The notes under the pieces: generated by a model | Database searches by the model: none | Told to the model about the DNA's origin: nothing | The model's input: the letters and a program-made list of their open reading frames with translations, nothing else | Virus record (IMG/VR): IMGVR_UViG_3300005680_000030 | Location: 1,452 to 65,451 of that record | Reading direction: 5' to 3' (one strand) | Length of the DNA stretch: 64,000 nt | Origin: a virus | Lineage: Duplodnaviria; Caudoviricetes | Shown: positions 11,011 through 52,755 of the stretch, piece by piece | Layout: each line of letters begins with the position of its first letter | How positions within the stretch are numbered: position 1 is the first letter of the stretch | Translations under genes and position numbers: made by a program

Positions 11011-11047
11011 GCTATAGCATGACCGGCGACTTGCGTAAATCGCCAGT
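11011..11047 (-). promoter_or_regulatory. Late promoter TTTACG-N17-TATAGC overlapped by operator ACTTGCG-TAAAT-CGCCAGT (11029-11047)
   Basis: -35 at 11039..11034, -10 at 11016..11011; upstream of the 10954 start. Confidence 0.65.
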
Positions 11048-11069
11048 CGATCGCTCTTTGCTCGGAGAG

Positions 11070-11146
11070 TGGTTGCGGCGGGCGGATTCGAACCTGCGAC
11101 CTTCAGGTTATGAGCCTAACGGGCTACCAGACTGCCCTACGCCGCA
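11070..11146 (-). tRNA. tRNA-Met(CAT), initiator-like, CCA encoded, two T-stem mismatches
   Basis: TGCGGCG TA GGGC AGTCTGGTA GCCC G TTAGG CTCATAA CCTGA AGGTC GCAGG TTCGAAT CCGCC CGCCGCA A CCA. Confidence 0.85.
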
Positions 11147-11152
11147 ACCGAA

Positions 11153-11183
11153 CCTCTATCCAGAAATCGCCTTTTTCGCAAGT
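11153..11183 (-). promoter_or_regulatory. Putative tRNA promoter TTGCGA-N17-TAGAGG with overlapping operator-like site (11165-11183)
   Basis: -35 at 11181..11176, -10 at 11158..11153; predicted +1 falls near the tRNA 5' end. Confidence 0.5.
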
Positions 11184-14100
11184 CACCCGTTGATGAGCGG
11201 CGCAAGGCCCTCGCGGAGCTGTCCCTCCAGGCGCGGATTGAGCGAAACGCCGCCCTGCATCCGCGCGCTCGCCCGCTCGCGCGACTGGACCGAGCGGCGC
11301 AGGCTGTCGGTCGTGATCGGGTAGGTCGGGTTCTCGGCGTTGAACGTGGTGATCCGCTCGATCAGCCTGGCCGGCGGCTTGTCGCCGGCGCGCACCGCGC
11401 GCGAGTAGGCCCCCATCAGACTCGACCGCTGGTCAAGGATCTCGCGCTCGCGCTTCTTGAGCAGCGAGTTGGCGCGATACCGCTCGGCCAGGCCCGCCGG
11501 GACGAAGCCGACGCTCTGACGCAGCGCGTCGCCCCAGCCCATATCCTCCATGATCGGATCGCCGTTCAGGGTGGTTGCGCCCTCGCCGAGGTATCGTGCT
11601 GCGCGGATCTGGTCGCGGACGAACTTCGGCGCGATCGTCTCGATCCCGCGCAGGACGTGCCCGTCCTCGATCATGTTGAAGCCGCGCCACAGGTTCTCGC
11701 CCATCCCGACGCCGGCGCCGAGCATCTGCGAGACCCAGAACTGATACTCGCTCGATCCCTCAAGCTGCCGGTCGGGCGAGCGGAACCACAGATCGGGCAT
11801 GCCGATGCGGTTGGTCACGTCGATCCCAAGCACATGACCAGGAACGCCGTTGAGCAGCATGCCGGCGAGGCTCGGCCCAAGCGTCTCGACGAGATGGCCC
11901 TTCATCTCGTCCTCGAGGTCGTCGGCGTCGCCGGCGAAGAACAGCGCCATGAGCGCCATCGCCAGGCTGTAGCCCCAGACGCCGCGCACGCCAGCGTGCA
12001 GGAAGAGCATGCCCGTGATGCCGGCAAGCTGCGCCCGCGCCTCGCGGCGCACCTCCGGGCTCTCGCCCTTGACCGCCTGATGTGTGTCGCGGAACAACCG
12101 CCACAAGAGGTTAATTTGGAAATTTCTGAACACAAACAAGATCTTAGTATAGTCGCTGTGCATCAGTCGGGGGCGCGAAGACGCGCTGTAGTCGAAGTGC
12201 GTCTTCCACGTCAGGTCGGCCGCCTTGGCGATGGCATCCTCGCCAATGAGACCCTTCGCCTTCGCCATGCGGTAGGCGGCGAGGAACGTGACCTCGCGGT
12301 TCATGCGCTCCGTGTGGTGGAAGCCCCACGAGATGACGCTCATGACCCGGTTGCGCGCGGCGCTGTATTCGATGCCGCTCTCGCCGACGCCGGCGAGGTC
12401 ATGCGCCTGGCTCTTGTCGACGGTCCCGCGCCGATAGGCTTCCTCCATCGCGGCGACCTCGTCGGCGGTCAGGCGCTTCGACGTCGCCGCCCAGCCCTTG
12501 CCGTCACCGAAGTCGCGCAGCGCGCGGCCGAGCTGCTTCGCCGCGTCGCCGACGCCGCCATAGGCGCCGAGCACCGCCGTCCCGACGATGCTGGTCTGCG
12601 AGAGGTTGACGAGCGCGGCCGCGGGCGTCACCGACAGGTAGTAGACGAAGGCCGCCGAGGTGATCGCCTGCGACCACCACGATCCGGTCGGGCTCATCGT
12701 CCACTTGTGGCGCTTCTCCATCTCCGACCATACGAGCCCGGCGCGGACCGGATCGGGGGCGCGCTGCGCCTGGCGCTCGGACATCGTCAGCGCCTCGTCG
12801 AGGTCGATCGAGTAGCGCAGGCGAGCGAGCTGGTGCGCGCCGTGGAACATATGATGGCCGAAGGCGCGGAAGGCGTCGCGCTCGAATCCCGGCGTACCCT
12901 TGCGGTGGATCCGGCTCTTGCGGAGCGACAGGTCGGGCATGGTTTCCAGCCACCGCTGCCAGACCGCGTCCATGATCCGCGGGTTCACCTCGGCATCGTC
13001 GAGGATTCCCTCGACCGCCGCGACGAACTCGGGGTTCACCATGTCGCGGAGCGCGGTTTCGCCGATCGTGCCGACCGTCACGTCGTGAGACGGGTTCTTG
13101 CGCTGCTCCGCGGCGAACCGCTCCTGCGCCCGGGGCCCCTCGAACCTCGAGAAGCTCAGAACCTTCCCGCTGTCCCGGTCCCGGGTGGTGACGAAGAACT
13201 GGCCGAAGCGGGCCAGCGGGAAGTAGGGCGCCGGCACCTTCTGCGTCTCGAACAGGGCGCGGAGATCGACCATGCGGCTCCGGCGGCCCATACGCGCCTT
13301 GATCTGCGCCCGGTCCAGCTTGCGCTTGGCGGCCGTGATCTCCCGGTCACGCGCCTCGCCGGTCAGGCCCTCGTCGTTGATCTCGGCCAGCCGGTCGTCG
13401 TGCGCGCGCTGCGCGCGGCGATCCTCCTGCTCCATCGCCCGCGTGACGTTGCGCTCGAGCGTGTCGTCGAAAGCGTCGCCGAGCGCCTTGTGCTCGTCGC
13501 GCACGCGCCGGTACATCCCCTGGTAGGGCGCTGGCAGGGCGTTGAACCGCTTGCGCAACTCGGCGTGCTTGGCCCGGCGCTCCTGGTCGTTCGCGAGGTT
13601 CTCGGCGGCGATGCGCCCGGCCTCGCCGCCGGTTCCCTTCGCCAGCGCGGCCTTGTCCTTGTCGTTCAGTCCCGAGACGAACCGCTCGGCCGGGTCGGTC
13701 CCCGCAAGGGTCGCGTCGTGCATTAGGTCCATGAGCGCGGCGTTGTCCGGTCCCCGCACGCCCAGCTTGCGCCACGCCTGCGCGACGTCGTCGGTGCGGG
13801 CGTGCCACTCGTTGCGCAGCGCGTCCATCTCCTCCTTGAGGCGCAGATAGTCCTGGGACGCCGGCATGTGCTTGCCGAGCTCGGCGAAGAGCGCGCGGCC
13901 GGGTACGAGCGCGAGCAGGTTGGTGTTGCCAGACATGGCCTTGGTGAGCGCGTGCGAGACGATCTTGCGCTCGCCGGCGATGGCGGCCGCCTTGGGGATC
14001 GCCGAGGCAAGCGAGTAGGAGACGCCCGGGCGCGGACGCAGGGGCGCCGCGCGCAGCGCCGCCGCGGCGATGGCGCGGAGCTGCGCCGGCGTCACCGCGC

Positions 14101-17100
14101 CGATCTGCCGCCCGAAGCGCCGCAGGATGAACGCCTGGATCTCGCCCAGGATGCGGTCGACGATCTCGAGGATCCCGGCCGGCGCGCCGGCGCGCTCCTC
14201 GATCGCATAGGCGGCAAGCTCCTCGGCGTTCATCTGGCGCGGGCCGAGGCGGTCGAACGCCCTACCCCACCAGCCGTCCGTCGGCGCGCCCGCCTGCATC
14301 TGCCGCCGCAGGATGGCGTCGAGGCGGCGCATCATGCCGTCCCAGGCGGGCGTGCCGATGACGCTCTCGCCGCCGGCGTGGAACGCCTCGTGCAGGAGCA
14401 CCGGCACGGCGGTCTCGGCCGTCAGGTTCGATGCGACCAGGTGGATCACGCCGTCGGCGTCGGTCATGCCCTGGATGCGACCGGAGACCGCCGATTCCTT
14501 GACTGAATCACCACCCTCGGCTATGTTGCCATCCGAGCCAGGGCTACTAGGATGGCGCTCGCCATCCCGATATGCGGCAGACGAGCGCCGCCGTTCGTTC
14601 GAGAGTTGGCCCGGCTCGTCCCCAGCCACCGGCGGCACTCCACCCTTGAAAACCGACCGCGGAGTGCGTATCCTGCCGCTCGCGCGTAGGGCATTGATGG
14701 TGTCGCTCAGCGAGGCGTTAAGGGAATCAGCCCCGGTATGTCTATATCCATCGCCCTCGCGCTCAGCTCTCACGTATAGGATCGATCCGGCCCGCTCGGC
14801 GCCGCGAAGCATCTCGCGCGCGCCTTGCTTGTCGTAGACGGTCACGACAACGGTAGCGGCGGCGGCCTGGCTGTCCTTTCCCGCGCGCTTGATCGCGGCA
14901 ACCACCACGTCGCCGTCAGCAGTCTCGGCATCCGTCACCAGCAGGAGGTCGCCGGATCGCTCGTCGCCAGCATTGCGCAGCACGAACACCGGGTTTGCAA
15001 GGAGCACAGGCAGATCGCGCACCGCGGACGGCGGAACATCGGGATGCTCCCTGAGCACCCGCTTGAGCTTGCCCGGCGACATGATCAAGGACTGACCTCG
15101 GCCACCGAATGCTCTTAGGATCTCAGGGACGGGCCCGAGCTCCATGCTGCTTGAGAGGTCGAACCCGCCGCGGAGAAGGTCGAGAACCTGCCGGCCCCAG
15201 CCCGATAGGGAGTTCTGCCCGCCCTCCCCCGGAAGCGTCTCCTCCGTGTCGTGCAGGACGATCCGGCCGGCGTCGATGGCGCTTTCGACCATGACGCCGA
15301 ACGGGCCGCGGCGCAGAACGGCGCGCAGGGCATCAGTCCCCGCGAGCGCGTCGCCAGCATCGCCTGCGGCAATCGAGAACGACTCCCCCTCGCCCTCGAT
15401 GTCAGCCTCGGGGATAGGGGCGACGACCTCCGCCGGCGCGGGCGGCTCGTATATCGCCCGGGTGAGGTCGCGCACCTCCGCCTCGAGCTTCGTCAGCGCG
15501 TCTGCGTCCTTGAACTCGCTGCCCTGGCGCTTTGCGTAGTCGGTTGCCTCGCGCTCGGAATCGGCCTTCATCTTCTCGCTGCGCTCGAGACGGTGCTCGA
15601 AGCTGTCGAGGATGCTCTCTGCGGAGCGGATCGTTCCGACCTCCGAGGTGGAGACTGCCACATCGACCGAGAACTGCTCGTCGATGGCAAGGTTCACGTC
15701 CCATTGCCACGCGCCGCCCAGCTTCCACGCGCTCAAGGTCAGTGGGAACCCACCGAGTTCGCCGATCTCGCGATTCTTCATCTCGCGCGGCTCGGCCAGA
15801 TCGTCCTTGACCTTGGCGAGGAGCGCCGCGCCCGCCTCGGCGCGCTTGTCATAGGCCGTGCCGTCGATCGTCGCCTTGAAGGCGTCGCCCTTGGTCTCGA
15901 CGCGCCGCGTGATGGCGCCCTTCCACCGCTCGATTGCCGTCTCGGCGTAGGCGGCATTGCTCTTCGCATTGGCGACGCGCCGGCGCAGCGCGTACTGCTC
16001 CTGCGAATGGGCGGCGGCGCGACGCCGCAGCCGCTCAAGATCCTGCCGCATCTCGGTGAGCTGAACCACGCGGGGATCGGCGGTGGAGAGCGCCTTCGCC
16101 TGCTCGTAGAATGCGGCCTCGCCCAGGTCGTCCATGTCGCGGACGGTCGTGTCGCCGTTCCAGAAGCTCTCGATGAAGCGGCCCTTGCGCTCCATCATCT
16201 GCCACATGGTCGAATCGTAGGAGCCCTTGAGGCCGTAGTCGTGGATCTCGATCTCGGGGTTCATGTTGCCTTGGCGCAGCGCGCGGCCGTTCCGCTGCTC
16301 GTCGTCGGCGGGATACCAGAGCGGGTCGAGGTTGTGGCTGGCGATCAGGCGGCGCTGCACGTTGGTCCCGACGCCCATCTTCGGCCCGGAGCCGATCAGC
16401 ACGCGGATCTTGCCCTCGTTCACGTCGTTGAAGAGGCGCTGTTTCGCCACGTGGGTCTTGAAGTCGGAGATGAAGGCGATCTCGTCGCGCGGCACGCCGC
16501 GGCGCATGAGTTCCGACCGGATGTAGGCCGGAACCTGGAATGCGCCGGTGAGCCCGAGGTTGGCGAACACGAGCTGGGTGGCCGGGCCGTGCATGATCGG
16601 CTTGGCGCTGTAGCCGCCAGATTCGGGCCGGTAGAACGGCTGGTTCTTCGACCGCTTCCAGATCTCGAACACATTCTCGACGAGCGTGTCGAGCTTGGAC
16701 GGCGCGTCAGGTTCCGGGCGGTAGAGGATCGAATCGACCATCCGCATGTCGATGTTCGCCTTGCGGCCGTCGTTGATGACCGAGAGGATGATGTCGTCGC
16801 CTGCCTTCGGCGGCCCCTTCCGCTCCTCGATCGCCGTGATCCGGGCCGCGAGGCCCGCCTGGAAGTCCATGAAGTCGCCGCTGCGCTCGGCGAGGTGCAT
16901 GGTGCGCTTGCCGCCCTTGAGCTTCGGCCGGGTCACGTACTGCTCGAGCTGGCGCGAGGTCACGACGTCGACGTTCTGCCGGACCATCGCCGATAGCTGC
17001 GGGATGTTCACGAAGCGCGAGAAGCGCGAGACCATCTTGTATTTGCCCGCGGCGTCCTGCTCCGGCGCCGAGACCGACTCGCCAAAGGCGCTCGCCCACG

Positions 17101-20100
17101 CGTCGAACTGCTGGAGGTTGCGGGCCTCCAGTTCGCCCCCCTGGATGTAGCGCGACAGGGTGAACAGCTCGGCCATCGTGTTCGTGACCGGCGTTCCAGA
17201 CGCGAGCACGAGGCTGCGCCCGGGCTTCATCGACTCCAGGTAGCGGCTCTTGACGTAGAGATCCCAGGCCATGCCCGAGCCGTTCGGGTCGATGCCCTTG
17301 AGGTTCCCCATCTTGGTCGCGAAGTCGAGCTTGCGGAACAGGTGCGCCTCGTCGACGAAGAGGAAGTCGACGCCCATCTCCTCGAACGTGAAGACCTGAT
17401 CCTTGCCCGATCCCTTGCGGCCGGAGAGGCGCTGCTCGAGCTTCTCGATCTGGTTCTCGATCTTCTTCCGGGTGATCCGGGTATCCTGCCCCTTGTCCAT
17501 CTCGCCGAGGATCTCGCGATACTCGGCGATCTCCGCCTGCACCATGCGATCCTGGAACGCCTCGCTGATCGGCACCTTGCCGAACGAGGAGTGCGTGATG
17601 ATGACGGCGTCGAGGTCGCTCATCGAGACGTTGGCGATGAACTGCTTGCGCCGGTCGGTGTGGAACTGGCGCTCGTCGGCGACGGAGATCCGGGCGGTCG
17701 GATACTGCTCGTAGAACTCCTTGGTGAACTGCGCGAGCATGTGGTTCGGCACGACGTACATCGGCTTCCGCACGAGCCCGAGGCGGCGCATCTCCATGCC
17801 CGCGCCGATCATGGCGCTGGTCTTCCCGGCGCCGACGGCGTGCGCCATGTAGGTGTTGCCAGCCTGGACAATGCGGGCGACGACGCGCTGCTGGTGCGGC
17901 CGCCATCTCCACGACGTCGAGACGCCGGGCGTGGTCAGGTAGGATCCGTCGAAGTCGCGCACGACGAGGTTGTTGTAGGTCTCGTTGTAGAGCGCCGCGA
18001 GGCGGTCAGCCCGCGCCTCGTCCTGATAGATCCAGCCCTCAAACGCCTCCCTGATCTCCTTCGCCTTGGCGAGAGCGGCCTCGGTCTGCTCCTTGTCGGT
18101 GACGGAATCGTAGCCGCCGTCGGCGCGCGCCACGCGGTTGACGACCTTGATCTCGCCCTTGTTCAGCACCGCCTTGAGGATGCTGGTCGCATCGACGCGG
18201 CTGGTCCCCCAATCAGAGGTCGCGGCGGCCGACGTCTCGTCGCCTTCAACCTGCCAGAACGCGAGGCGCGGGGAATAGGTGGCCTTGAACCGGGCGAGGC
18301 CGAGGCGCGCGGTCGCGAACTCCTCGACCGTGGCGGGCGGGATCCACGGCATGCCCAGCGTCGCGGCGATCTGCGCCGGCGCAAGGTCGATCGGCTGGAC
18401 CGCCTCGAGCGCGTCGACGTTGCGCTGGAATCGAGGATCGCGATCGGCGGCCACCTTCGCGTCGCGGAGCTTCTGGCGAACGTTCCCCGACAGGTATTCG
18501 TCGCTGATGAGCCAGTCGCCGGTGGACTTGGGGTTCTCGTAGACCCGCGGTCCCAGCTTCTCCAGCGCCTCGCCGGCGCTCACCTTGAACGCCGCCGCGA
18601 CCGCGTCGAGGTCGAACCGGCCGCGATCGTTCATCACGTAGAGCACCGCGTCCTCGATGCTCTTGATCTCCGGCGTCAGCGGCCGCGAGATCACGTTCTT
18701 GAAGAACACCTCGGTCTTCTGCGCTTCGCCGGTGGCGTCGTTGTAGCTCTCGATGGCGCGGAGCCGGTAGCTCTCGGGGTCGTCGCCGAACGGCTCGATG
18801 TTCGGACGCTTGTCGATCACCACGTCGGGCATGTCGTCCGGGTCGAACGCGCCCTCGCTCCATTCCCGGCCGGCGGCGACCGCCGCCTCGCGCGCCTCTT
18901 TGCGGGCTCGGGCGACGGCCTGAGTGCCCTTCCCGTCCGCGATCAGCGCCGACGGGTCGAACGAGCCCTCGTCGAAGGGCTCGCCAGCATAGCGCGCCTC
19001 CTCGCGCGCCTCCGCCCTGGCGTTCTCCGCCTGCACGGAGGTCGGGCGGCGATAGCTGATCTCGGCCTTATTGATCGGCCCGTGCCGCTGGGTGAAGGCG
19101 TCGTAGGCCGCATTGAGACGGCGGCGGGCCTTCTGCCCATTGGCCGCGTCGTTGGCGAGGTCCGCGGCGTAGACGGCGCGCAGCGCGTCGCGCACCGGCA
19201 CGAGGCTGCGGATGACCTCGATCTCCTGCGCGCTCCGCCCGCCTGTCACGCCCTTGCCACGCTGCTCGACCGCCACGCCGACGCCGTCCCGCTGCTGCAT
19301 CAGGGCGTCGCCCTTGAGGTAGAACGAGCCTTCCTTGCGCTCGGCTGACGCGAAATCCACCTCGGCGCGGTCCTGCGGCGTCTCGGGCTCGCGCATGACG
19401 CCCTCGGGGAGATTCGACAGCGCGATCGGAAGTTCGGCCGCGAGGTTCGCCCCCGGGCGCGAGCGGACGCCGTAGCGGCCTGCATAGAGCTTGTCGAAGA
19501 AGCCCTCCTCGCCCAGCACCATGTCTGGGTGGTCGACGAAGTAGCGGCTGACGGCGCCCTCCTTGTCGTTCCCGTTCTTGTCCTTGAGCGTGACGGTCCT
19601 CGTCTCCATCGACGGCGACAGGACGCCATCGGGCAGCAGATCCAGCTCGGCGGGCATGAACTTCCGCAGCACGATGATGTCGGTCGTCACCGCGGTCCCG
19701 GCGTTCTTCTCGAAAGCGTCGCCCGGCAGGCGCACGGCGCCGACGAACTCCGCCCGATCGGACAGATACTCGCGCGCCTTGGTGTCAACCTTGTTCAGCG
19801 TGCCGGCGGAGGTCACGAACATGAGCAGGCCGCCCGGGCGGACAGCATCGAGGCTCTTGGCGAAGAAGTAGTCGTGCAGCAGGAACCCCTGCGGATAGCC
19901 GGGGTCGCTCTTGATCGGGATGTCGGCGAACGGCGGGTTGCCGATCACCAGGTCGTAGGAATCGCGCGGGAGCGGGGCCTTGGTGAAGTCGTCCTGGCGC
20001 ACACCCCATTTGGGATAGAGGAGGCGCGCGATCTTCGCCGTCGTCGGATCGAGCTCGAGCCCGCTATAGGCCGTCCGTTCGGCGAGCGCCGCCGGCATCA

Positions 20101-23100
20101 TGCCCGCGAAGTTGCCCGTCCCCATGCCGGGCTCGAACACCGAGCCGCCCTTGAAGCCCAGCCGCTCGGCGGCATCCCACATGGCGCGCACGACGGTCTC
20201 GGCGGTGAAGTGGGCATACTGCGTCGTGCGGCGGGCCGTGGCATATTCCGTCTCGGAGAGAAGGCCGCGCAGCTCCTCGCCGATCTTCTCGTAGCCCTTG
20301 CCGAACGCGCCGGCCTGGTCGGGGAACACGGACGCGAGGCCGCCCCAGCCGACATAGCGGGCAAGCGCCTCCTGCTCCTGCGCGGTCGCCGGACGGCCCT
20401 CCGCCTCGATCGCGCGGACGAGCTTGATGGCGGTGATGTTGTCGTGGGCCTTCGCCTTCCAGCCGCGCGCCTCGTCGAGTGCGCCGGGCTTAATGACGTG
20501 GTTCTGGCTTACGCCGGCGGGAACTCGATCAGCGTCTCGAGAACCTGCCTCTCGGCCTCCTGTCGGTGCGGGTTCTCGGGCAGGCCGTTCGGCAGCTTCG
20601 GCGCGCTGGCGGTCAGGTCGGCGAACATCCTGCTCGCCTCCTCTGCCTTCGCCTGAACGTGCGCCTCGAGCTGGCCCTTGGCCTGCAGATCCCTGAACAT
20701 CTCCGGGGCCTGCTGGCGCATCGCTGTCAGGTACGGGCCCTTGAACTCCATCCTGCGTCCCCTCCTCGATGCCCTTGAGCGCCGCGCGCACCGCGTCGGC
20801 GTCGTCCATCCCTTCGATCGACTGCCCGCTGTCCTCGAGCATGTCGCGCGCGCCATTGTACCATGCCCGGAGATACTTCCGAAGCGCGGCCGGCGTCGTG
20901 CCGAGGTCGTCGGCGATGGCTTTCGCCAGGTTGGTAAACGATCGCGCCCCGGCCTCGATGTGGAACACCGCGAGCTCGGCCCCGATCGCAAGGATCTCGG
21001 GGTCGATGCCCGAACGGAGCTCGGTCTTGAGCTTTGCCTTGAGGCGTTCCCGCAGCTCGGCGGCGCGGTCGGCCGTGACGAGGATGTTGCTCGCGCCGTA
21101 GGCCGCGGGGGTGGCTACTTGCGTTTTCGGGGATTCCGGCTCGGATTTTTGCGTTTTGGGCGATTCCGCGGGTTTGGCATCAGACGGCTCGTCTTCGAGC
21201 GCTTCGATGGATCGGAAAATGCTCGGGTCCGCAGCCTTCTTGGGGATCTTGCTGTCCGCTACCGCGGCGTCCACCGCCTCCTGTGCGGTTTTGCCGGACC
21301 CCGATCCGCCGCGGGTCGGGCCGCGGACACCAGCGACGAAGCCTTCGCCGGACTCCCGTTCCTGGACGAAGTTGATACGATAGCCCTCCGGCGCTTCGGC
21401 CTTGGCTTTAGCTCCGCCGACCGGGCGCGACGTGACGGTCCCCTTGGCTGGGTCAATGACGATCGCGACGCCAGCGGGCTTCGGCACAGGCGTGCGGAGA
21501 TGCTCGGCGAGGTCGGTGTTGCCGCGCTTGGTCGCGAACGGCTTCCGGGTGTCGCCCTGCAGGAGCCAGGACTTGAACCGGCCGACGCCAACCTCGGTGA
21601 TGGCGCCCATGCGGCGGCCGCCGCTTCCGTCGGAGAAACCCGCCTCGTAGGTGGCGCGGGCCTCCTGCTCGGTGAACGTTCCGAGCACCACCTTGTGCTC
21701 ATCGAACTTGCCCGTCTCCGGGTCGATCTGGTCGACGATGAAGACGTTGCCGCTCTGCGGCTGTTCGCCCACATAGACGTCGACATGGTCGCCGTCCGCG
21801 CCCTCGGTCCGCCGGATATAGCCGTAGTGCGCCGGCAGGGTGACGCTCCACTCCGTGCCGTCCTTCGCCTTCCCGCGCCGCTCGCCGCCCTTGGCGGTCT
21901 CGATGGTGACGTCGAGGCCATGCACCTTCACATGGCCCATCTGGTAGTTGCCGGCCTCCTTCTGCGCGTCGGAGGGTTCGGGGTTGGCCTTTGCGGCTTC
22001 CTCGGCGATCGGGTCGGCCTGCACGGTCCTCGCGCGGTGCTTCCGCGCCGCCTCCAACGCGCTCGCGCGCACCGCGCTCTGCTGCTGCGGGCTCATGGTG
22101 GCGAAGCCCGCCGCGACGTTCGCGAGGTTTTCCCCGGCCGGGCCGAACACGACGAGGTTCTTCCCGCTGCTGTCGTAGCCGGCGCGGAAGCCGATAGGCA
22201 TTTCCGCGTTGATGGCCTCGACAGGATCGGCCGCCAGCTTCTGGGTCGCCGCCGGAGCGCCGACAGCCGCCTTCACCTTCTCCTCGTGCTTGCGCGAGAA
22301 GATCCATCCCTTTTCCCGGGCGTCCCATTTCAGGCTGACGCCGGGAACGTCGACCGGCGGCGCGTCGGGCGTGCCGCCGCGGATGATCGCGGCCTTCTCG
22401 CGGATGTGCTCGACGGTGAGGTTGGCACCGGAGGAGGGAGTCGAACCCTCGGGACCGGGTTTTGGAGGCCCGTCCACCGCCGCGGCGCTCTGATCTGCTT
22501 CGGCCGCGGGCGCGGCGGCGACCTCAAGTTCCCGCTCGGGCTCGGCCTCCGCCGGCGCGGGCGGCTGCGGCGGGGTGCGGTCGGTGTCGGCCGGCGCGGG
22601 CGCTTCGGGAGCGGAAGGCGCCGCGGCCTCGACAGCCGCGGCAGTTGCCGCCTCGGGGGCGGTAGGCGCTGCCGCCTCATCGACCGGCGCGCTGACCTCT
22701 GGTTCAACGAGAGGGGCGATTTGCTCCTGATCCGGCACGACGGTCTCAACAGCAACATCCTGCGCCGTCGCTGCGTCGCCGGGCGTCTGCTGCACAACAT
22801 CTGACCGATCCGCTCCGGCTTCGGCGTCTCCCGGCGCCGGGGTCTGCGCCGCCGGTCGCGCGACGAACCCACCGCCCTCGGCCATGATCTCGTAGGCCGC
22901 CGGATCCAGTCGGCGGTTGCGGACCGCCTGGCGCGCCTGCGCCTCGGTCTTGAAGGGCGTCCCGTCGCGGCGCGTGATCGGCGCGGCCTCGGGCTGCTCG
23001 CCCGGCTCGGGCGGCGCGACGGCTTCCGGCTGCGGGATTTCGATCCCGCTGGGCGTCGCCGCCTCAACGGCGGCCTCGAGGTCGCCGAGCTGCTGGCGCA

Positions 23101-24953: not shown

Positions 24954-24989
24954 ACTATAGCCGACGAGAAACTATCCGAAAAGGATAGT
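24954..24989 (-). promoter_or_regulatory. Late promoter TTTTCG-N17-TATAGT overlapped by palindromic operator ACTATCC-GAAAA-GGATAGT (24971-24989)
   Basis: -35 at 24982..24977, -10 at 24959..24954; upstream of the giant gene. Confidence 0.72.
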
Positions 24990-25055
24990 CATTCCGATGC
25001 GGCGTTAACCATGCGTGAGCTTGCCCGGAACCGCTCCATCCGGCACGATGGCGTC

Positions 25056-25313
25056 ATGAGCGACATCCTGCACAAGATCTACATTGAGTTCACCGTCGGG
25101 GCGGTCTGGCCCTATCAGGCGCTGCTCGTCGTGTTCCTCTCCGTGGTGATCCACCGCCTGCGCCGGCGCGACTGGCGCGCGACGTGGGCGTGGCTCGCGC
25201 CGATGCTCTGGCACGCGCCGAAGCCGCGCGAGGCAGCATCATGGGATGCGGCTGGGCCGGCGATACCGCCCAGCGTCGCCCGCTTCACGGAAATCGTCCG
25301 ACCCGGGCTGTAG
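25056..25313 (+). CDS. Small membrane protein on the opposite strand (moron-like)
   Basis: MSDILHKIYIEFTVGAVWPYQALLVVFLSVVIHRLRRR TM segment; possible promoter TTGCCC-N17-CACGAT at 25021-25049. Confidence 0.55.
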   Translation: MSDILHKIYIEFTVGAVWPYQALLVVFLSVVIHRLRRRDWRATWAWLAPMLWHAPKPREAASWDAAGPAIPPSVARFTEIVRPGL

Positions 25314-29674: not shown

Positions 29675-30109
29675 TCAGCCTCCCGCGATCCAGCGGCACT
29701 CGCGCGCCAGCATGCCGAAAATGAGAACGTCCTCGCCGTCCAGCGCCTCGCGCTCCCGCCCCTCGATCACGAACCCGAGGCGGAGGTTGAGCATCATCGC
29801 CCGGCGGTTGCTCGCGGCGACGCGGCCGGTCACCCGCCGGAGCCCGTAGTGGACGAAGGGGACGTAGAACATGCTCGCGAGCGTCGCACGGGTCGCCCAG
29901 GCAATGCTGCCGCGATCGGCCGCGATGTGAATCCAGGCGCCCTGATCGTGGAAGTGGTTCAGCACACCGACCGCGAGGATCGCATTCTCGTGGTCGAGCA
30001 CGCCGAGCGCCTCGCTGTCCGCCGGCCAGTCGGCGACGCCAGTGCGCTCGCCCGCCCAGCGGAGGAGCGTCGCTTGCTCGTCGATCGTGATGATCGTCTG
30101 TCCCGTCAT
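29675..30109 (-). CDS. GNAT-family acetyltransferase (virion operon)
   Basis: LRRVTGRVAASNRRAMMLNLRLGFVIEG GNAT motif. Confidence 0.85.
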   Translation of the reverse strand: MTGQTIITIDEQATLLRWAGERTGVADWPADSEALGVLDHENAILAVGVLNHFHDQGAWIHIAADRGSIAWATRATLASMFYVPFVHYGLRRVTGRVAASNRRAMMLNLRLGFVIEGREREALDGEDVLIFGMLARECRWIAGG

Positions 30110-35303: not shown

Positions 35304-36410
35304 TTACTTCACGGGCGCGGCGGCGGTGTCGATCGCGAGCACCCCGAAGTCGCGGCCGTTGAACCGCGTCTTCTTGAAGCCCATGATCGTGCCGCAGGAG
35401 ATGTTGACCTGGTTGCCGAAGTCGGCCTTCTCCTCCTCCCAGTTCCAGGAGAGGCCGCCGGGCGTGCCGTAGGCGACGGTGCCGGCCTGCCGGCCGAGCA
35501 GCAGCGCGCGGGCCGCGGGAACGTTGGAGCCGGCGCCGTAGTTGTTGAACCGGATGACGTCCTTGTGCTTGTGCAGCACGATGTCGTCGATCATGCCGAG
35601 CGAGCCGCGGAAGATGCGGTTCTTCGACCCTTCGGCGGCGGCGGCCGCCTTCTGGATGTCGAGCCAGTCGCCGGCGTTGGTCCCGGTCCGCAGGTTGTGG
35701 GCCTGCAGGGGGCTCATCAGGACGACGTAGTGCTCCTCGCCCTCGATCGTGATGGGCTGGATCGACACGTTGTCGGGGTTGAGCTCCTGGATCATCGAGG
35801 CGTGGGTGCCGGCGCGCTCGATGACGGCGCGGGTCATCACGTCGCCGGCGGTGATGCCGCTCGCCGCGGTGATCGAGATCGCGGGGTAGATGATGTGGTC
35901 GGTGTCGGGCGCGTGGAGCGCGTTCCCGGCGCGTCCGGCCCAGGTCAGAGGCAGGATGAACGAACCGACGGCGTTGTGACCGCGCGCGCCGGACAGGTAG
36001 ACGAACTTCACCTGGTCGGTGAACCGCGCCCAATAGTCGCTCTCGCGGTCGCGAACGAGCATCCGGACGTTGTGCAGGGTGCGCTTGCGCGTCATCCGGC
36101 CGCCGGTGTCGGCCGAGTGGCGGACCTGGTCGATCTTGATCTCGTCCTGGTAGAACCGGAGGCTCTCCTCGAGACCCTCGCGCCGGGCGTCGCCCTCGGT
36201 GGGCTCGCCGCGGAACATCATGGCGAGGTCGAACTTGATCTCGTCGCCGGCGTCGCTCTCGAGCTCGGTGAGGCGCTGGATCACGGCGTTGTCGCCGACC
36301 GCCTCGAACTTCTTCGAGAAGTAGGCCTTGCCGCCCACCTGCTTGGCCAGCGACGCGCCCCACCGCTTTACGGCCTGCGGGTCGCCGACGCCCACCATAA
36401 ATTCCGACAT
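35304..36410 (-). CDS. Major capsid protein, N4-gp56/DUF4043 family
   Basis: GDPQAVKRW...ELESDAGDEIKFDL...EGLEESLRFYQDEIKIDQVRH...KKTRFNGRDFGVLAIDTAA. Confidence 0.92.
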   Translation of the reverse strand: MSEFMVGVGDPQAVKRWGASLAKQVGGKAYFSKKFEAVGDNAVIQRLTELESDAGDEIKFDLAMMFRGEPTEGDARREGLEESLRFYQDEIKIDQVRHSADTGGRMTRKRTLHNVRMLVRDRESDYWARFTDQVKFVYLSGARGHNAVGSFILPLTWAGRAGNALHAPDTDHIIYPAISITAASGITAGDVMTRAVIERAGTHASMIQELNPDNVSIQPITIEGEEHYVVLMSPLQAHNLRTGTNAGDWLDIQKAAAAAEGSKNRIFRGSLGMIDDIVLHKHKDVIRFNNYGAGSNVPAARALLLGRQAGTVAYGTPGGLSWNWEEEKADFGNQVNISCGTIMGFKKTRFNGRDFGVLAIDTAAAPVK

Positions 36411-36463: not shown

Positions 36464-36494
36464 ACTATACGCGAGACTTGCGATTTCGGAAAGA
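36464..36494 (-). promoter_or_regulatory. Capsid promoter TTTCCG-N17-TATAGT overlapped by operator ACTTGCG-ATTTC-GGAAAGA (36476-36494)
   Basis: -35 at 36492..36487, -10 at 36469..36464; a weaker site lies at 36508-36526. Confidence 0.7.
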
Positions 36495-36521
36495 TCTTAT
36501 CTTTCTGGCTATCTCGTTCGG

Positions 36522-36722
36522 TCAGTCGCCTATTGCGACCGCGAGTCTGGCGCGGTCGAAGCCTATCGGCGCGATGCTGCGCCGGACGCGGGTGATGGTC
36601 GTCGTCGTCGGGGCTTCCACGACGACGACGGGCGCGGAGCCACGGCGCTCGCGGTAGATGACCCTCGCGGGGCCATCCACCTCGACCGCATCGCCAACCC
36701 TCATGGTGGTCACAAGCGCCAT
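36522..36722 (-). CDS. CsrA-like small beta protein
   Basis: MALVTTMRVGDAVEVDGPARVIYRERRGSAPVVVVEAP aligns by eye with the CsrA pattern MLILTRRVGE...VRIGVNAP. Confidence 0.55.
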   Translation of the reverse strand: MALVTTMRVGDAVEVDGPARVIYRERRGSAPVVVVEAPTTTTITRVRRSIAPIGFDRARLAVAIGD

Positions 36723-44526: not shown

Positions 44527-45132
44527 TCACTCGTTGACGACGCGCAGGTTCGGACTCGACCGCTGCGCGCCGATGGGAAGCGCGGCCTGGGCGTTGACGA
44601 CCTTGTCGAGGAGTTGGGCGAGCTGGGCGTTGACGCCGATCTCGACCTCCTTGCGCTCGACGTACATCTGCAGGTGCTTGGCGATGGCATCGAGGGCGGT
44701 GGTCTTGGGCCAGAGGCGGACCTTGTGGACGTACTCGACCTCTGGATCCTCGCCCTTTGCGGTGGGGAGCACCTTGGTGACGACCTCGATCGAGGCGACG
44801 GCGCGGGCCAGATCGTCGGGCCACGCGCTCGGGTGCTTGAGGCCGCCCCCTTCGGTGAAGAGGCCGCGGATGTCGGAGAAGCCGATGCGGCCGAGCTCGG
44901 CGAGGGTTTCCTCGACCGTGATGCCCGTGCGCTGGATCGCCTCTCTCACGACTACTCCGTGCTGAGCACGGAGGCACTCAATCCGGCTCTTGATGATCTC
45001 CCGCTTGGCAAGGCGCTGAGCGTTGGCGGAGTGCTTCCTGAAGCCGGCCTTCTCATAGGCGGAGGAGATACTCTCCCCGGCGGCGACCGCTCTCGCGAAG
45101 GCTTCCCATTGGGGATTTTTCAGGGGCTCCAT
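44527..45132 (-). CDS. terS: Terminase small subunit
   Basis: WEAFARAVAAGESISSAYEKAGF...ANAQRL HTH; LAELGRIGFSDI...KTTALDAIAKHLQMY. Confidence 0.85.
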   Translation of the reverse strand: MEPLKNPQWEAFARAVAAGESISSAYEKAGFRKHSANAQRLAKREIIKSRIECLRAQHGVVVREAIQRTGITVEETLAELGRIGFSDIRGLFTEGGGLKHPSAWPDDLARAVASIEVVTKVLPTAKGEDPEVEYVHKVRLWPKTTALDAIAKHLQMYVERKEVEIGVNAQLAQLLDKVVNAQAALPIGAQRSSPNLRVVNE

Positions 45133-45139: not shown

Positions 45140-45234
45140 ACTTGCGGTTTTGGATAGCCATTTATACGGATATCGTATATTTTTGCGATAGTTGCTCCGG
45201 CAGATCATGCCTACAACTATCCGAAATAGCAAGT
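45140..45234. promoter_or_regulatory. Two inverted operator sites (45140-45158, 45216-45234) in the terS/dcm divergent gap; terS promoter candidate TTGCTA-N17-CATGAT
   Basis: ACTTGCG-GTTTT-GGATAGC and ACTATCC-GAAAT-AGCAAGT; AT-rich intergenic region. Confidence 0.7.
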
Positions 45235-45261
45235 CCGCCCCAACGCGGAACGGGAGACCCT

Positions 45262-46911
45262 ATGGCCTTCGACGAGATCATCGTGGACAGCTTCGCCGGA
45301 GGCGGCGGCGCCTCGACCGGGATCGAGATGGCCCTTGGCCGTTCGCCCGATGTGGCGATCAACCACAGCGCCGCGGCGCTGGCGCTGCACCGCGCCAACC
45401 ATCCGGAGACGGAACACCTCTGCAACGACATCTGGGGCGTCGATCCCTCGGCCGACGTCGCGCGCGGGCGGAAGATCGGGCTCCTCTGGGCGTCTCCGGA
45501 CTGCAAGCATTTCAGCAAGGCGAAGGGCGGGTCGGTGAGGGATCGCAACGTCCGCGATCTCGCCTGGGTGGTCTGCCGCTACGCCGAGCTTCCGCGCGCG
45601 GAGCGGCCACGCGTCATCATCCTCGAGAACGTCGAGGAGTTCATTACCTGGGGGCCTGTGGGCGAGGATGGACAGCCGATCGCTGAGCTCCGCGGGCTGA
45701 CGTTCGAGGCTTGGGTGAAGCGCCTGAGGGCTGCAGGCTACCGGGTGCAGTGGCGCGAGCTGCGCGCCTGCGACTACGGCGCGCCCACGATCCGGAAGCG
45801 ACTGTTCGTGATCGCGCGCAGCGACGGGCAGCGGATCGTCTGGCCGAAGCCAACGCATGGCGACCCGAAGAGGTCGCCCGCGGTGAAGCGCGGCAAGCTG
45901 CAGCCGTGGTTGACCGCGGCCGAGATCATCGACTGGTCGCTGCCGTGCCACTCTATCTTCGACACCGCAGAGGAGATCATGGCGAAGCACGGCGTCAGGG
46001 CCCGCCGGCCGCTGGCGGATGCGACGCTGCGGCGGATCGCGCGCGGGGTGGTGCGCTACGTGCTCAACAACCCGCGCCCGTTCGTGATGACGATGCGCGC
46101 CGCGACCATGGTGCAGACCGGCTATGGCGAGCGGCCCGGGCAAGCGCCGCGCAGCCTCGACATCGAGGCGCCGATCGGAACCCAGGTCGCCGGCGGCGCG
46201 AAGCATGCCGTCGTGGCGGCCTTCCTGGCGCAGCACAACACCGGCGTGGTCGGGCATGAGATCGACAAGCCGCTCTCGACCGTCGTCGCGGTCGGTCAGT
46301 TCGGCATCTCCCAGCAGGCGGTGGTGGCGGCGAACCTGATCAAGTTCAACGGCAACAGCACCGGGGCGGACCTCGAGGAGCCGGCGCCAACGATCACCGC
46401 GAACAGCTTCGTGAAGCGGCCCGGCGGCGCAGCTCCGATCGGGCTGATGGCGGCGAACCTCGCGCACCTTCGCGGCACCGGCGAGGCCGGCTCGGTCGAG
46501 GCCCCCCTCTGGACGCAGACCGCCGGCGGAACGCACGCTTCGCTCGTCGCCGCCTTCCTGACCAAATACTACGGGACCGACCAGGATCCGCGCCTCGACG
46601 AGCCGATGCACACCGACACGACGAAGCCGCGCTTCGGGCTCGTGACGGTCGAGATCGAGGGCCAGACCTATGCGATCGTCGACATCGGGATGCGGATGCT
46701 GACCCCGCGGGAGCGGTTCCGTGCGCAGGGCTTCCCCGACGGCTACCAGATCGCGACGGGGATCGACGAGAACGGGCGGCCCGTCAACCTGACCGTGGCG
46801 CAGCAGGGCTCCTGCGTCGGCAACAGCGTCTGCCCAGACCTCGCCGCCGCGCTGGTGAGCGCCAACTGCGCCGACATGGCGGTTGGGCCGAGCCGCTACG
46901 CCGCGGAGTGA
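45262..46911 (+). CDS. dcm: C5-cytosine DNA methyltransferase
   Basis: DSFAGGGGAS (motif I), WASPDCKHFS (catalytic PC), ENVEEF, RKRLF, GNSVCP. Confidence 0.92.
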   Translation: MAFDEIIVDSFAGGGGASTGIEMALGRSPDVAINHSAAALALHRANHPETEHLCNDIWGVDPSADVARGRKIGLLWASPDCKHFSKAKGGSVRDRNVRDLAWVVCRYAELPRAERPRVIILENVEEFITWGPVGEDGQPIAELRGLTFEAWVKRLRAAGYRVQWRELRACDYGAPTIRKRLFVIARSDGQRIVWPKPTHGDPKRSPAVKRGKLQPWLTAAEIIDWSLPCHSIFDTAEEIMAKHGVRARRPLADATLRRIARGVVRYVLNNPRPFVMTMRAATMVQTGYGERPGQAPRSLDIEAPIGTQVAGGAKHAVVAAFLAQHNTGVVGHEIDKPLSTVVAVGQFGISQQAVVAANLIKFNGNSTGADLEEPAPTITANSFVKRPGGAAPIGLMAANLAHLRGTGEAGSVEAPLWTQTAGGTHASLVAAFLTKYYGTDQDPRLDEPMHTDTTKPRFGLVTVEIEGQTYAIVDIGMRMLTPRERFRAQGFPDGYQIATGIDENGRPVNLTVAQQGSCVGNSVCPDLAAALVSANCADMAVGPSRYAAE

Positions 46912-47156
46912 TGGCTATGGCGCTTGATCCGATGACCGCGGAAGGGTTCAAGGGGATTCGCAAGGCTCTCGGGCTGACGCAGGCCGAGCTGGCCGACCGG
47001 CTCGGCTACGGCAGTCAGGTTCGCATCAGCGAGTTCGAGACCGACAAGAGGCCGATCACGCAGCGGGCGGCCGCGGCGATGCAGTTGCTTCTGGACGCGC
47101 AAGCTCCGCCGCCTTCTGCTCCGCGGCGGCGTTCTGCCTCTCGACGGCGAGCATGA
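46908..47156 (+). CDS. XRE-family HTH protein
   Basis: FKGIRKALGLTQAELADRLGYGSQVRISEFETDKRPI. Confidence 0.8.
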   Translation: MMAMALDPMTAEGFKGIRKALGLTQAELADRLGYGSQVRISEFETDKRPITQRAAAAMQLLLDAQAPPPSAPRRRSASRRRA

Positions 47157-47298
47157 TGCACCGGACGACGCCCTGTGCCGTGCGGGCGTGCGTCCAGCAC
47201 AGGTAGCGGTCGGCTCCGGTCTTCGCGTCGGCGCCGCGGAGTTCAGCCGGGGCTCCACAGGCGCATGCTGGGTCTACGACAGTCTGCTCGACCTTCAT
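47056..47298 (-). CDS. Hypothetical Cys-containing protein
   Basis: CACG...CWTH; coupled to the upstream gene; 3' end overlaps the XRE gene antisense. Confidence 0.5.
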   Translation of the reverse strand: MKVEQTVVDPACACGAPAELRGADAKTGADRYLCWTHARTAQGVVRCIMLAVERQNAAAEQKAAELARPEATASPRPPAA

Positions 47299-47945
47299 AG
47301 CCGATCGCCCCGCGGGCCGACGGCGCGCCGGATCGCCTCGAGGCGGGCGTGCATCTTCGGGATCTCGGCACGGTCGCGCTCGGACCGCTCGGCGAGCGCC
47401 AACATCTCGGCTTCGTTCTTCGTCAGCCGCGCGTGCAGCTCGCCCAGGTCGTGGACGAGATTCTCCATGTCGTCGTTGTCGCCGTGCGGCCCGAACAGCA
47501 TCTCGCGGAGGTCGGCCACCCAGGCGGTGGGGATGTCGCCGAGGCCCTTGGCGATGGTGGCGTCGGTCGCGCTGCCGACGTAGCGCCCGGCGTTGCGGTC
47601 ATAGCAGCCCTCGAGGGCCTCCATGATTCGGCGCCGGTCGGTGAGGCTGGGCGCGCGCGGCGCGGCGGGGGCAATGGGCGTGACGGCGGCTTGCGTCATC
47701 GGCTTTGGCTCCTGCGGGGGACGGGTTTCGTTGGTGACGCGACGCTCGGCGGCGATGCAGTCGGGACAGTGGCGCTTGCGGCCGATGCGCCAGCCGGCGG
47801 CGACCAGCTTGCGGTTGGCCTGGCCGTCGGCCGTCGCGCCGGCGACGACGGCGATCTCGAACCCGCAGCCATCGCACGCGACGAGGTGGCGGGGTTGGCC
47901 GGGGATGCCGACCACCTTGGCGCGGCGGGTGATCTTGGGCTTCAC
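47295..47945 (-). CDS. Zinc-finger phage protein
   Basis: CDGCG...HCPDC; SLTDRRRIMEALEGCYD...TDATIAKGL...AWVADLREMLFG. Confidence 0.7.
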   Translation of the reverse strand: MKPKITRRAKVVGIPGQPRHLVACDGCGFEIAVVAGATADGQANRKLVAAGWRIGRKRHCPDCIAAERRVTNETRPPQEPKPMTQAAVTPIAPAAPRAPSLTDRRRIMEALEGCYDRNAGRYVGSATDATIAKGLGDIPTAWVADLREMLFGPHGDNDDMENLVHDLGELHARLTKNEAEMLALAERSERDRAEIPKMHARLEAIRRAVGPRGDRL

Positions 47946-51245: not shown

Positions 51246-51250
51246 GACGC

Positions 51251-51425
51251 TCAGGTGCCGAAGGGTGGCACGTAGAGGCAGCGGAACTCCTGGCTGTTCG
51301 GCAGGATGCAGGCGTGGAAGTGCTCGTCCTGGCTCTGCCGGACCTCGTCGTAGCGGAACAGCTTCTTGTGGTCGCGCCGGGCGGTCTGGTGCTCGCCGGC
51401 GGGGGGGTCGGGTGGCTTGGGGCAT
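51251..51425 (-). pseudogene. Frameshifted remnant of a small phage protein (...HFHACILP...CLYVPP)
   Basis: The coding-biased frame lacks a start; ATG 51425 joins it only if the G7 run at 51401-51407 loses one base. Confidence 0.5.
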
Positions 51426-51441
51426 AGCCGGGCACGCTGGG

Positions 51442-51470
51442 AAAAGGCCCGCCGGGATCAGCCCGGCGGG
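51442..51470 (-). terminator. Intrinsic terminator
   Basis: CCCGCCGGG-ATCAG-CCCGGCGGG 9-bp stem; CCTTTT follows on the minus strand. Confidence 0.7.
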
Positions 51471-51565
51471 AAGTTGGTGGGAGGAAACGCCCGTTGGGCG
51501 TGTCTGCCGGCCCCCTACATCCGCGCGCGAGGCGGGGCCGGCGGTGAGCGAGGCGCGCGGGTCTT

Positions 51566-52372
51566 CTAGACGGCCTTGCCGCGGTGGATCGGGAATCTCG
51601 GGCAGTCGACCGCAATCGCGTCGCAGAGGCGCTCGAACTCGGCGTTCAGCAGCTCCTCGAGCCGGTGGATCTTGACCGTGAACGACAGCTTCCCGTCGCT
51701 GATGTCGTAGGCGAGACGCGCGGCCCACCGGACCGGGTCGCTCCCCTGGAACACGGGCGTCTGGAGCAGGATGATCTTCGGGCAGGCAACCGCGCCAGCC
51801 GGGCTGTCCTTCTCCTCGTAGCGGAACTGCCGCTCGCCGGTGCTGATGTTGATCGCCGACTTGAAATCGACGTTGCGGACCGCCTCGAACCTTGCGGCGA
51901 CCTCGAGCAAGTCTGCGGGCTCCGGCGTCACGGCGTCCTCGGCCCGGTCTTCGAGAAACTCGGCGAACCGCTTCTGCGGCATGGGCTTCTCGTTGACCGC
52001 GTGCCACGCGGCGAAGGCTGGCGCGAAGACGGCCGGGTACGTCGCCTTGTGCGTGGCCCACGACGCTTCGCTGATGCTGTGGTAGTCGATCGCCGCGACA
52101 ACCTTCATGTCCGCCAGCGAGGCGAAGATGCGGGTGCTGGGGCCGCCGAAGGCGTTGACGTAGGCGGAAAAGCTCCGCGGGGTCTCGTGGGTTGCGATCT
52201 GCTTGATGCGCGCGGGCGCATCCGCGAACCGTTCGAGGTCCTCGAACGCCACCATGCTGTTCGGATGTTTGACGACGGCGCGGATGCGCGAGTAGCCGGC
52301 GACGCTCTCAACCCGGGCGATGGGGATGTTCTCGACCGCGGCGTCGATCAGTGTGCGGTGATCGTCCGACAT
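51566..52372 (-). CDS. DUF2303 (YfdQ-like) protein
   Basis: AFAAWHAVNEKPMPQKRFAEFLED...GERQFRYEE...PVFQG. Confidence 0.85.
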   Translation of the reverse strand: MSDDHRTLIDAAVENIPIARVESVAGYSRIRAVVKHPNSMVAFEDLERFADAPARIKQIATHETPRSFSAYVNAFGGPSTRIFASLADMKVVAAIDYHSISEASWATHKATYPAVFAPAFAAWHAVNEKPMPQKRFAEFLEDRAEDAVTPEPADLLEVAARFEAVRNVDFKSAINISTGERQFRYEEKDSPAGAVACPKIILLQTPVFQGSDPVRWAARLAYDISDGKLSFTVKIHRLEELLNAEFERLCDAIAVDCPRFPIHRGKAV

Positions 52373-52680
52373 TATCGTTCTCCGATGCGCGCCAGGAGGC
52401 CGTCAGCCTCGTCTTTCGGCGGGGTGCGGGTGAGGCCGAAGTCCTCGGTGGGGTAGTAGAAGGCTTCGCCCTGCGGCCGCTTCGGCACGGTCGCCTTGAC
52501 GTCCGCCATGAGCTTGAGCGCCTTCTCGCCGTTGGGCTTGATCGTCACCGTGATGGTCAGCTTGGCCGTCTGGCCGTAGCGGATGACGTCCTTGACGCAC
52601 TGCTGGAGCAGTTCGTCGGCGTTCTCGACGAGCGACCCGCCGTCGTGCCGCGAAAGCGCCATGAGAAATGAGGAGTTCAT
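52372..52680 (-). CDS. Conserved partner gene upstream of DUF2303
   Basis: GQTAKLTITVTIKP...VKATVP...FYYPTEDFGLTRTPP. Confidence 0.75.
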   Translation of the reverse strand: MNSSFLMALSRHDGGSLVENADELLQQCVKDVIRYGQTAKLTITVTIKPNGEKALKLMADVKATVPKRPQGEAFYYPTEDFGLTRTPPKDEADGLLARIGER

Positions 52681-52726
52681 GCATCCCTCTTCTGAGATTG
52701 TCTCGGTTCCCCCGAGACCGGGCGTG

Positions 52727-52755
52727 TTGTCCGACTTGCGAAAACCGCCTATCGT
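52727..52755 (+). promoter_or_regulatory. Promoter TTGTCC-N17-TATCGT with operator-like ACTTGCG-AAAAC-CGCCTAT (52734-52752) in its spacer
   Basis: Upstream of the 52783 repressor gene; GGAG RBS at 52775-52778. Confidence 0.6.

Follow-up and report, generated by a model that had tools for sequence, protein, structure and literature searches.

A 19-bp inverted repeat of the form ACTWKCS-N5-SGMWAGT (hereafter the dyad) is dispersed over the late region of the virus record IMGVR_UViG_3300005680_000030. The sequence analyzed, referred to as the window, comprises 64,000 nucleotides (bases 1452-65451 of the single 65,451-bp record; 69% G+C), and positions are numbered from its first base. Judged by its sequence, the source is a temperate podophage, a distant relative of Burkholderia phage Bcep22, and the window covers nearly the whole 65.4-kb genome. 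The dyad is a real motif that defines a late regulon, and its roughly ten sites mark out the late transcription units of this phage. Our preferred interpretation, held with a little less than even confidence, is that the dyad is the operator of a phage-encoded dimeric regulator, with repression or roadblocking of transcription as the most likely mode of action.

Sequence, Statistics and Distribution of the Dyad

The ten 19-mers listed by an initial annotation of this DNA are all present, with coordinates and letters exact, and the full degenerate dyad is indeed commoner than expected from background. With at most one mismatch, ACTWKCS-N5-SGMWAGT occurs seven times in the 64 kb (two exact copies and five with a single mismatch) against 0.22 expected, none of 100 shuffles reaches seven, and at most two mismatches yields 11 sites against 3.2 expected; these figures are biased upward because the degenerate pattern was built from the very sites that it counts. 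A looser pattern, ACT-N2-C-N7-G-N2-AGT with at most one mismatch, shows no enrichment (14 sites, 12.3 expected). Two further analyses are less biased. With a leave-one-out position weight matrix (PWM), the seven core sites score 17-28 bits, whereas the maximum in null genomes averages 10 bits. A motif-blind seed search of 5.5 kb of intergenic DNA returned the six intergenic core sites as its top six seeds, with a CI-type operator family (described below) behind them.

The distribution of the core sites is equally distinctive. Six of the seven are intergenic, although intergenic DNA makes up 7.2% of the window, and all six fall within 947 nt of late-region intergenic DNA, with none in the other 3654 nt (p = 7.6e-5). 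The motif is restricted to late-unit starts, the divergent region between terS and the methylase, and the DNA upstream of an XRE-family gene at 52783. The ten listed sites, with their PWM scores, are as follows.

11029..11047, core dyad ACTTGCG TAAAT CGCCAGT, upstream of the fibre-operon gene 10532-10954 (minus strand), 24.1 bits
11165..11183, intergenic dyad of half-site quality, 18 nt upstream of tRNA-Met and 136 bp from 11029, 14.8 bits
24692..24710, dyad of half-site quality and uncertain function, inside the giant gene about 230 nt into the open reading frame (ORF), 279 bp from 24971, 14.8 bits
24971..24989, perfect palindrome ACTATCC GAAAA GGATAGT, between the giant gene (minus strand) and ORF 25011-25313 (plus strand), 26.9 bits
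30119..30137, best-scoring dyad, filling the 31-nt gap before the acyl-CoA N-acyltransferase gene and ending 9 nt before its ATG, 28.4 bits
30634..30652, core dyad within the 174-aa gene 30141-30665 (minus strand), beginning 10 nt after the ATG and encoding DFRESQL, 23.9 bits
36476..36494, core dyad preceding the major capsid gene 35304-36410 (minus strand), with a weak partner at 36508-36526, 25.6 bits
45140..45158, core dyad just ahead of terS, its end 7 nt from the ATG, 23.9 bits
45216..45234, core dyad ahead of the C5-methylase/helix-turn-helix (HTH) operon, 27 nt from its ATG and 76 bp from 45140, 26.8 bits
52734..52752, weak dyad with a good left half, between the early gene 52372-52680 (minus strand) and the XRE gene 52783 (plus strand), 10.5 bits

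The consensus may be written (G)ACT-n-K-C-S, five mostly A/T bases, and S-G-M-n-AGT(C), with one extra conserved base on each side. In three of the listed sites (11165, 24692 and 52734; 10.5-14.8 bits) only one half is a good match, and weaker candidate sites absent from the original list are found at 36508, 21117 and 410. Where dyads lie in coding sequence there is an excess of codons ending in A or T (five of seven codons at 24692, four of seven at 30634), to which little weight is given because the argument is partly circular, any match to an A/T-containing motif bringing A/T codons with it. Site 24692 encodes the motif LLAISEI in the lytic-transglycosylase-like N-terminus of the giant protein. 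The site at 410 belongs to a palindrome, TCTATCC TGACC AGATAGA (410-428), located 19 nt ahead of the start of the integrase gene. Its score with the dyad PWM is 11.3 bits, but the spacer is G/C-rich, and it may be an unrelated int/att element.

The half-sites themselves fall into two discrete classes, ACTTGCG (G-type) and ACTATCC (A-type), with half-site positions 4, 5 and 7 correlated (Fisher p = 0.003 and 0.02). The classes combine freely, and GG, AA and mixed dyads are all present. Two phage proteins, or a heterodimer, might read the two classes, for example a lysogeny repressor and a lytic activator or anti-repressor in competition. We consider this unlikely; if true, all late operons of a temperate podophage would come under the direct control of a second switch, distinct from CI/Cro.

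Placement Relative to Genes and Predicted Promoters

The late genes run on the minus strand throughout, from 45132 down to approximately 2643 on a codon-bias gene map. Replication and methylase genes form an early minus-strand operon from approximately 53400 to 47295, and an early plus-strand operon containing RecT, HNH and other genes extends from 54206 onward. The genes that matter for placement of the dyad are the following.

447-1448, plus strand, tyrosine integrase
10532-10954, minus strand, fibre-operon gene
11070-11146, minus strand, tRNA-Met
11183-24925, minus strand, giant DarB-like ORF with a lytic-transglycosylase-like N-terminus
29675-30109, minus strand, acyl-CoA N-acyltransferase gene
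30141-30665, minus strand, 174-aa gene
35304-36410, minus strand, major capsid gene, N4-gp56 family, 57% amino acid identity to Bcep22
36522-36722, minus strand, CsrA-like gene directly before the capsid gene, the same arrangement as in Bcep22
44527-45132, minus strand, terS
45262-47156, plus strand, C5-methylase and small-HTH operon
52372-52680, minus strand, early gene
53182-53400, minus strand, cro-like gene
53491-53856, plus strand, putative CI repressor gene

The initial annotation had placed the sites over the -35 boxes of late promoters. This description holds for the fibre, giant-gene and capsid dyads, which cover a weak -35-like TTTnCG and the spacer, although the promoters themselves are predictions only. 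At these three units the TTTnCG element sits within the dyad and is followed, after 17 nt, by a TATAG(T/C) box. The fibre dyad 11029 has its TATAGC box (11011-11016, minus strand) 12 nt downstream, and TATAGT boxes on the same strand lie 11 nt downstream of dyad 24971 (24954-24959) and 6 nt downstream of dyad 36476 (36464-36469); minus-strand TATAGT occurs only twice in the whole window, each time just downstream of a dyad, at the giant gene and at the capsid gene. The predicted dyad centres are at approximately -28 (capsid), -33 (giant gene) and -34 (fibre). The late -35-like boxes (TTTCCG, TTTTCG and TTTACG) match TTGACA at three to four of six positions, while the early promoters carry TTGACG. 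The putative late promoters, TTTnCG-17-TATAG(T/C), look like weak yet complete sigma-70 promoters. The early promoters are canonical (TTGACG-16/17-TAGATT/A), so the host polymerase reads standard signals.

The remaining sites are placed differently. Sites 45140, 30119 and 30634 have no visible -10-like box on their downstream side, and no Shine-Dalgarno sequence is seen ahead of the ATG of either terS or the acetyltransferase gene. Site 45216, read in the terS direction, holds TTGCTA, followed 17 nt later by CATGAT. Site 52734 lies within the spacer of a predicted TTGTCC-17-TATCGT promoter for the XRE gene 52783, read by eye from the sequence. The sites are also paired: 45140 with 45216 (76 bp) and 30119 with 30634 (515 bp) form strong pairs, and the weak sites 11165, 24692 and 36508 lie 136, 279 and 32 bp from a strong site, the DNA within 300 bp of a strong site amounting to 5.6% of the window.

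A Proposed Operator for Negative Control

A dimeric, phage-encoded DNA-binding regulator of the late operons, as first proposed for these sites, is the most economical reading of the motif and of its placement. Under this model the regulon would comprise the late (virion and lysis) half of the genome together with the divergent methylase/HTH operon. A weak -35-like box and spacer would be covered by the dyad at five units (fibre, tRNA, giant gene, capsid and terS), and a dimer bound there would keep RNA polymerase out. Partner sites located at gene starts or just within them (45140, 30119 and 30634), and weaker ones 32-279 bp away, could serve cooperative binding, looping or elongation roadblocks. 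Repressor sites typically vary in position within the polymerase footprint, whereas those of activators that need a fixed geometry do not; it is because of this variable placement, the sites at gene starts and the pairing that a repressor or roadblock is favoured over an activator. Both the XRE protein 52783 and the HTH protein 46908 (see Candidate Binding Proteins) are encoded antisense to lytic operons, each with a dyad upstream, which is counted in favour of a repressor. A further argument by analogy comes from Bcep22, whose own dispersed dyad overlies the -10 of promoter-like elements (see Comparison with Known Systems). The earlier description of the sites as a candidate second immunity regulon is plausible as a hypothesis.

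Several points weigh against negative control. All -35 and -10 assignments are predictions from sequence, and a consensus promoter scanner finds no sigma-70 promoter in the 24-38 kb interval. Weak late -35 boxes and the absence of a consensus promoter are the classical signature of activator-dependent late promoters, and restriction of the regulon to late operons is the outcome expected of a late activator. It is unusual for a dedicated second repressor to act directly on late operons. A cleavage (S24) domain is absent from both HTH candidates, neither of which has an identified relief mechanism, and the collections searched hold no close relative in which conservation of the sites could be compared. 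A regulator with dual function would be compatible with both repression and activation.

A Possible Site for a Late Activator

The dyad may instead be a late-gene activator site, replacing a proper -35 element and recruiting the host RNA polymerase by way of a phage lytic-cycle protein, for which the 216-aa product of 47295-47945 is the candidate. We regard this as a genuine possibility, albeit less likely than repression. It fits the limitation of the sites to late-unit starts and the promoters that have a good -10-like TATAGT and a poor -35, where the early ones have a canonical TTGACG -35. The gene for the 216-aa protein closes the early operon, which is the place of the genes for lambda Q-type and other late regulators, and a high-confidence model of the protein combines a zinc ribbon with a tri-helical HTH-like domain and a dimerising helix of 50 residues. 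Homologues are found in Caulobacter, Rhizobium and Brevundimonas phages. An immunity role for this family would be unlikely, the phiCbK-like Caulobacter phages that carry it being strictly lytic.

The geometry of the sites is harder to reconcile with activation. The distance from dyad to -10 box is 6 nt at one promoter and 11-12 nt at others, and a difference of 5-6 bp would put the protein on opposite helix faces at different promoters. The predicted dyad centres (-26 to -34) match neither class II activator sites (-41.5) nor the P1 type (approximately -22). The strong sites 45140, 30119 and 30634 lie on or inside start codons and are not followed by a -10-like box. For the 216-aa protein, structural matches lack statistical strength (Foldseek E > 0.5; Z approximately 5).

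Improbable Alternatives: Host Regulator or Nucleic Acid Structure

It is also conceivable, although quite improbable, that the phage has recruited a host global regulator to time or silence its late genes, the dyad being the site of that regulator. Against this reading, 401 alphaproteobacterial genomes together contain only 46 exact copies of the pattern, which are never clustered (at most three copies in 4.9 Mb), in a scan of this one bacterial class, outside which the true host may lie. The motif is also absent from the distant relatives retrieved, and Bcep22 carries a different dyad of its own, which fits a regulator that co-evolves with its phage. A search with the dyad PWM over all fetched relatives found no multi-site loci, and the pattern ACTATCCGAAAWNGMWAGT has three single matches in IMG/VR, on low-GC contigs, which are taken as chance. 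Within the 401 alphaproteobacterial genomes, the exact dyad is about tenfold rarer than its reversed (not complemented) control (46 vs several hundred).

A nucleic acid structure has a very low probability, be it an RNA stem-loop that serves in processing or attenuation or an N4-type promoter formed by an extruded DNA hairpin: the near-perfect 7-5-7 palindromes at 24971 and 11029 do fold at -9.4 and -9.6 kcal/mol, and the capsid is of the N4-gp56 family, but only three of the ten sites fold better than shuffled sequences, and mixed sites (ACTATCC...CGCAAGT) keep three to four of seven complementary positions while conserving the outer ACT/AGT and inner C/G letters, so that the dyad is read as sequence and not through pairing. 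An RNA or single-stranded DNA hairpin is rejected on these two grounds.

Candidate Binding Proteins

Three proteins encoded in the window are considered as possible binders of the dyad.

46908..47156, plus strand, HTH protein of 82 aa (Pfam HTH_3, E = 3e-7; PHROG transcriptional regulator), its start overlapping the end of the C5-methylase gene
47295..47945, minus strand, 216-aa protein with a zinc ribbon, tri-helical HTH-like domain and long coiled coil, the last early gene before the late region
52783..53076, plus strand, XRE-family HTH protein of 97 aa (Pfam HTH_3, E = 5e-7), antisense within the early minus-strand operon

The XRE protein 52783 had been put forward as the best candidate. 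Its own upstream site is the weakest of those listed (10.5 bits), and neither the HTH protein 46908 nor the 216-aa protein is a less plausible choice. A sequence search of the PDB found no relative of the XRE protein, and viral contigs hold no close homologue. BLASTP gives no support for its being a paralogue of the putative CI or of HTH 46908. The operon of HTH 46908 is flanked by the densest pair of strong sites; the protein has weak similarity to Bcep22 gp44 (E = 1e-4), its relatives elsewhere are only 43-57% identical, and a PDB sequence search was uninformative. The 216-aa protein belongs to a family with 1521 homologues and no Pfam model, and a 97% variant of it is on record. In its structure, modelled from a multiple sequence alignment with a predicted local distance difference test score (pLDDT) of 89, a zinc ribbon is joined by an HTH-like domain of three helices and a helix 50 residues long; its structural matches are weak (Tc3 transposase HTH, Z 5.1; Myb, TM-score 0.54-0.61), and as a binder it is a candidate only, a lead from modelling. 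In a co-occurrence approach, all three proteins had only distant relatives in viral and genome collections.

Knowledge of the binder would tell whether the late operons are silenced directly or activated, and would provide a portable operator/regulator pair.

Comparison with Known Systems

By analogy, the dyad appears to work most like the operators of lambda-type dimeric repressors, dispersed over the late operons. It resembles the CI-Cro operators of lambda, P22 and 434 in being a quasi-palindrome of about 19 bp with an A/T-rich centre, in overlapping the predicted -35 and spacer, and in the pairing of sites; small XRE-type HTH candidates are present here as well, each with a site before its own gene. 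Operators of the lambda type are dyad-symmetric and 14-20 bp long, a range that includes the 19-bp dyad, and they overlap the core promoter (-35 to +20); here such overlap applies to predicted promoters, and the scanner detects no consensus promoter among the late genes. Lambda-type operators are also bound by a phage HTH repressor expressed in the lysogen, a role for which the window offers HTH candidates. Unlike those operators, the sites are spread over approximately 42 kb at late operons rather than clustered at an immunity region, a separate set of CI-type operators already serves the early promoters, and there are two discrete half-site classes.

The stoperators of mycobacteriophage L5, to which the initial annotation had likened the sites, share with the dyad the dispersal of a repressor-type site in a temperate phage, with some copies in short promoterless intergenic gaps where blocking of elongation is an obvious role. 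The analogy fails on the defining features of symmetry, orientation and spread. Stoperators in L5 (cluster A) are asymmetric 13-mers, bound by monomers, with more than 20 copies genome-wide in one orientation only (PMC9283540). The dyad, by contrast, is a symmetric 7-5-7 inverted repeat with both halves conserved and a perfect palindrome at 24971. It follows no orientation rule, the order of half-sites relative to the downstream gene being mixed (GG, AA, GA and AG), and of its seven strong and approximately four weak sites, no strong one falls within the 3654 nt of intergenic DNA that lie beyond the late region.

The sites of late activators such as P1 Lpa, Mu C, P2 Ogr and RinA offer the likeness of one conserved element per late promoter, with a -10 present and a poor -35, and a candidate regulator gene at the end of the early operon. 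They differ from the dyad, which keeps no fixed distance from the (predicted) -10 boxes and has three sites with no -10 at all. Pfam, PHROG and NCBIfam scans of the candidate proteins detected no homology to Lpa, C, Ogr or RinA. Restriction-modification systems provide a further comparison, their C-boxes being tandem GACT-N3-AGTC elements before the C gene; the outer GACT/AGTC letters are shared with the dyad, in which they stand 13 bp apart and are dispersed over 42 kb.

Bcep22 itself has a dispersed dyad of its own, GGTTC-TATAAT-CGAACC, centred on -10-like boxes before terS, the capsid gene and the giant gene (gp75), and also in the cI/cro region, as well as a second repeated word, TGGTGCG, in tandem. 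Positions of these dispersed Bcep22 elements (dyad, TGGTGCG repeats) are given here in the coordinates of that phage.

21960, 31388, 47903, 21036, 7935, 4480; and 7140, 25051, 16907, 41923

The two dyads belong to the same phage group and occupy syntenic positions, with a length of approximately 17-19 bp, conserved outer triplets and an A/T-rich centre. They differ in sequence; moreover, in Bcep22 the centre is itself the -10 hexamer, and copies occur in the early/immunity region as well. The synteny of the putative Bcep22 dyad supports the view that the positions of the dyad are promoters, and suggests that a phage-specific dyad at each late promoter is a trait of the group, perhaps with a group-wide regulator that co-evolves with its phage. 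A literature search, which did not take in the founding description of Bcep22, found no account of late transcription control in Bcep22-like (Lessievirus and allied) podophages. The word promoter is not used in the JC1 paper (PMC9144972).

Most likely the dispersed dyad belongs to a familiar kind of phage control, one for which this phage group has so far had no description. Should it serve a conventional activator or repressor, the result would be a useful annotation and no surprise.

Early Operators and Local Elements

The dyad had been held to be distinct from the CI operator, and so it proves, a separate palindrome, CACGCAATTGCGTG, serving the early promoters. This element lies in the spacers of two canonical early promoters, TTGACG-16/17-TAGATT/A, at approximately 53407-53434 and 54098-54126. 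The CI-type family as a whole, CACGC-AATT/TTTT-GCGTG, is found at 53407-53434 and 54070-54130, and its promoters flank the putative repressor gene 53491-53856 (plus strand) and face the cro-like gene 53182-53400 (minus strand). Another element, the perfect A/T-rich palindrome TATACGGATATCGTATA (45163..45179), is present in one copy in the window, exactly between dyads 45140 and 45216, and is possibly a separate local operator private to HTH 46908.

Relatives and Other Features of the Phage

Close relatives of the capsid protein were not found, the best matches being at most 57% identical at the amino acid level in INPHARED, at most 61% in IMG/VR and at most 50% in JGI metagenomes, with none in GTDB genomes. 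In a set of 5.8 billion proteins an identical capsid protein occurs on 12 contigs, and the next best match is 65% identical. The methylase DNA is similar to that of Burkholderia, Pseudomonas and Gordonia phages.

The small ORF 25011-25313 (plus strand), which adjoins the perfect-palindrome dyad and is divergent from the giant gene, has a predicted transmembrane stretch and looks like a moron, for example one encoding an exclusion protein. Within the giant ORF, ARAGORN calls a tRNA-Trp at 22423-22494 (minus strand), probably a false positive. The early plus-strand operon contains a duplicated cassette, 81-93% identical, with two DUF4326 genes, the copies pairing as follows.

61291-61590 with 62601-62900
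61799-61872 with 62995-63068
62429-62523 with 63352-63446

An 83-nt direct repeat, 99% identical (6910-6992 and 7291-7373), is found inside the 1141-aa late gene 4611-8036 (minus strand) and points to recent duplication of a repeat unit in a probable tail-fibre or tailspike protein.

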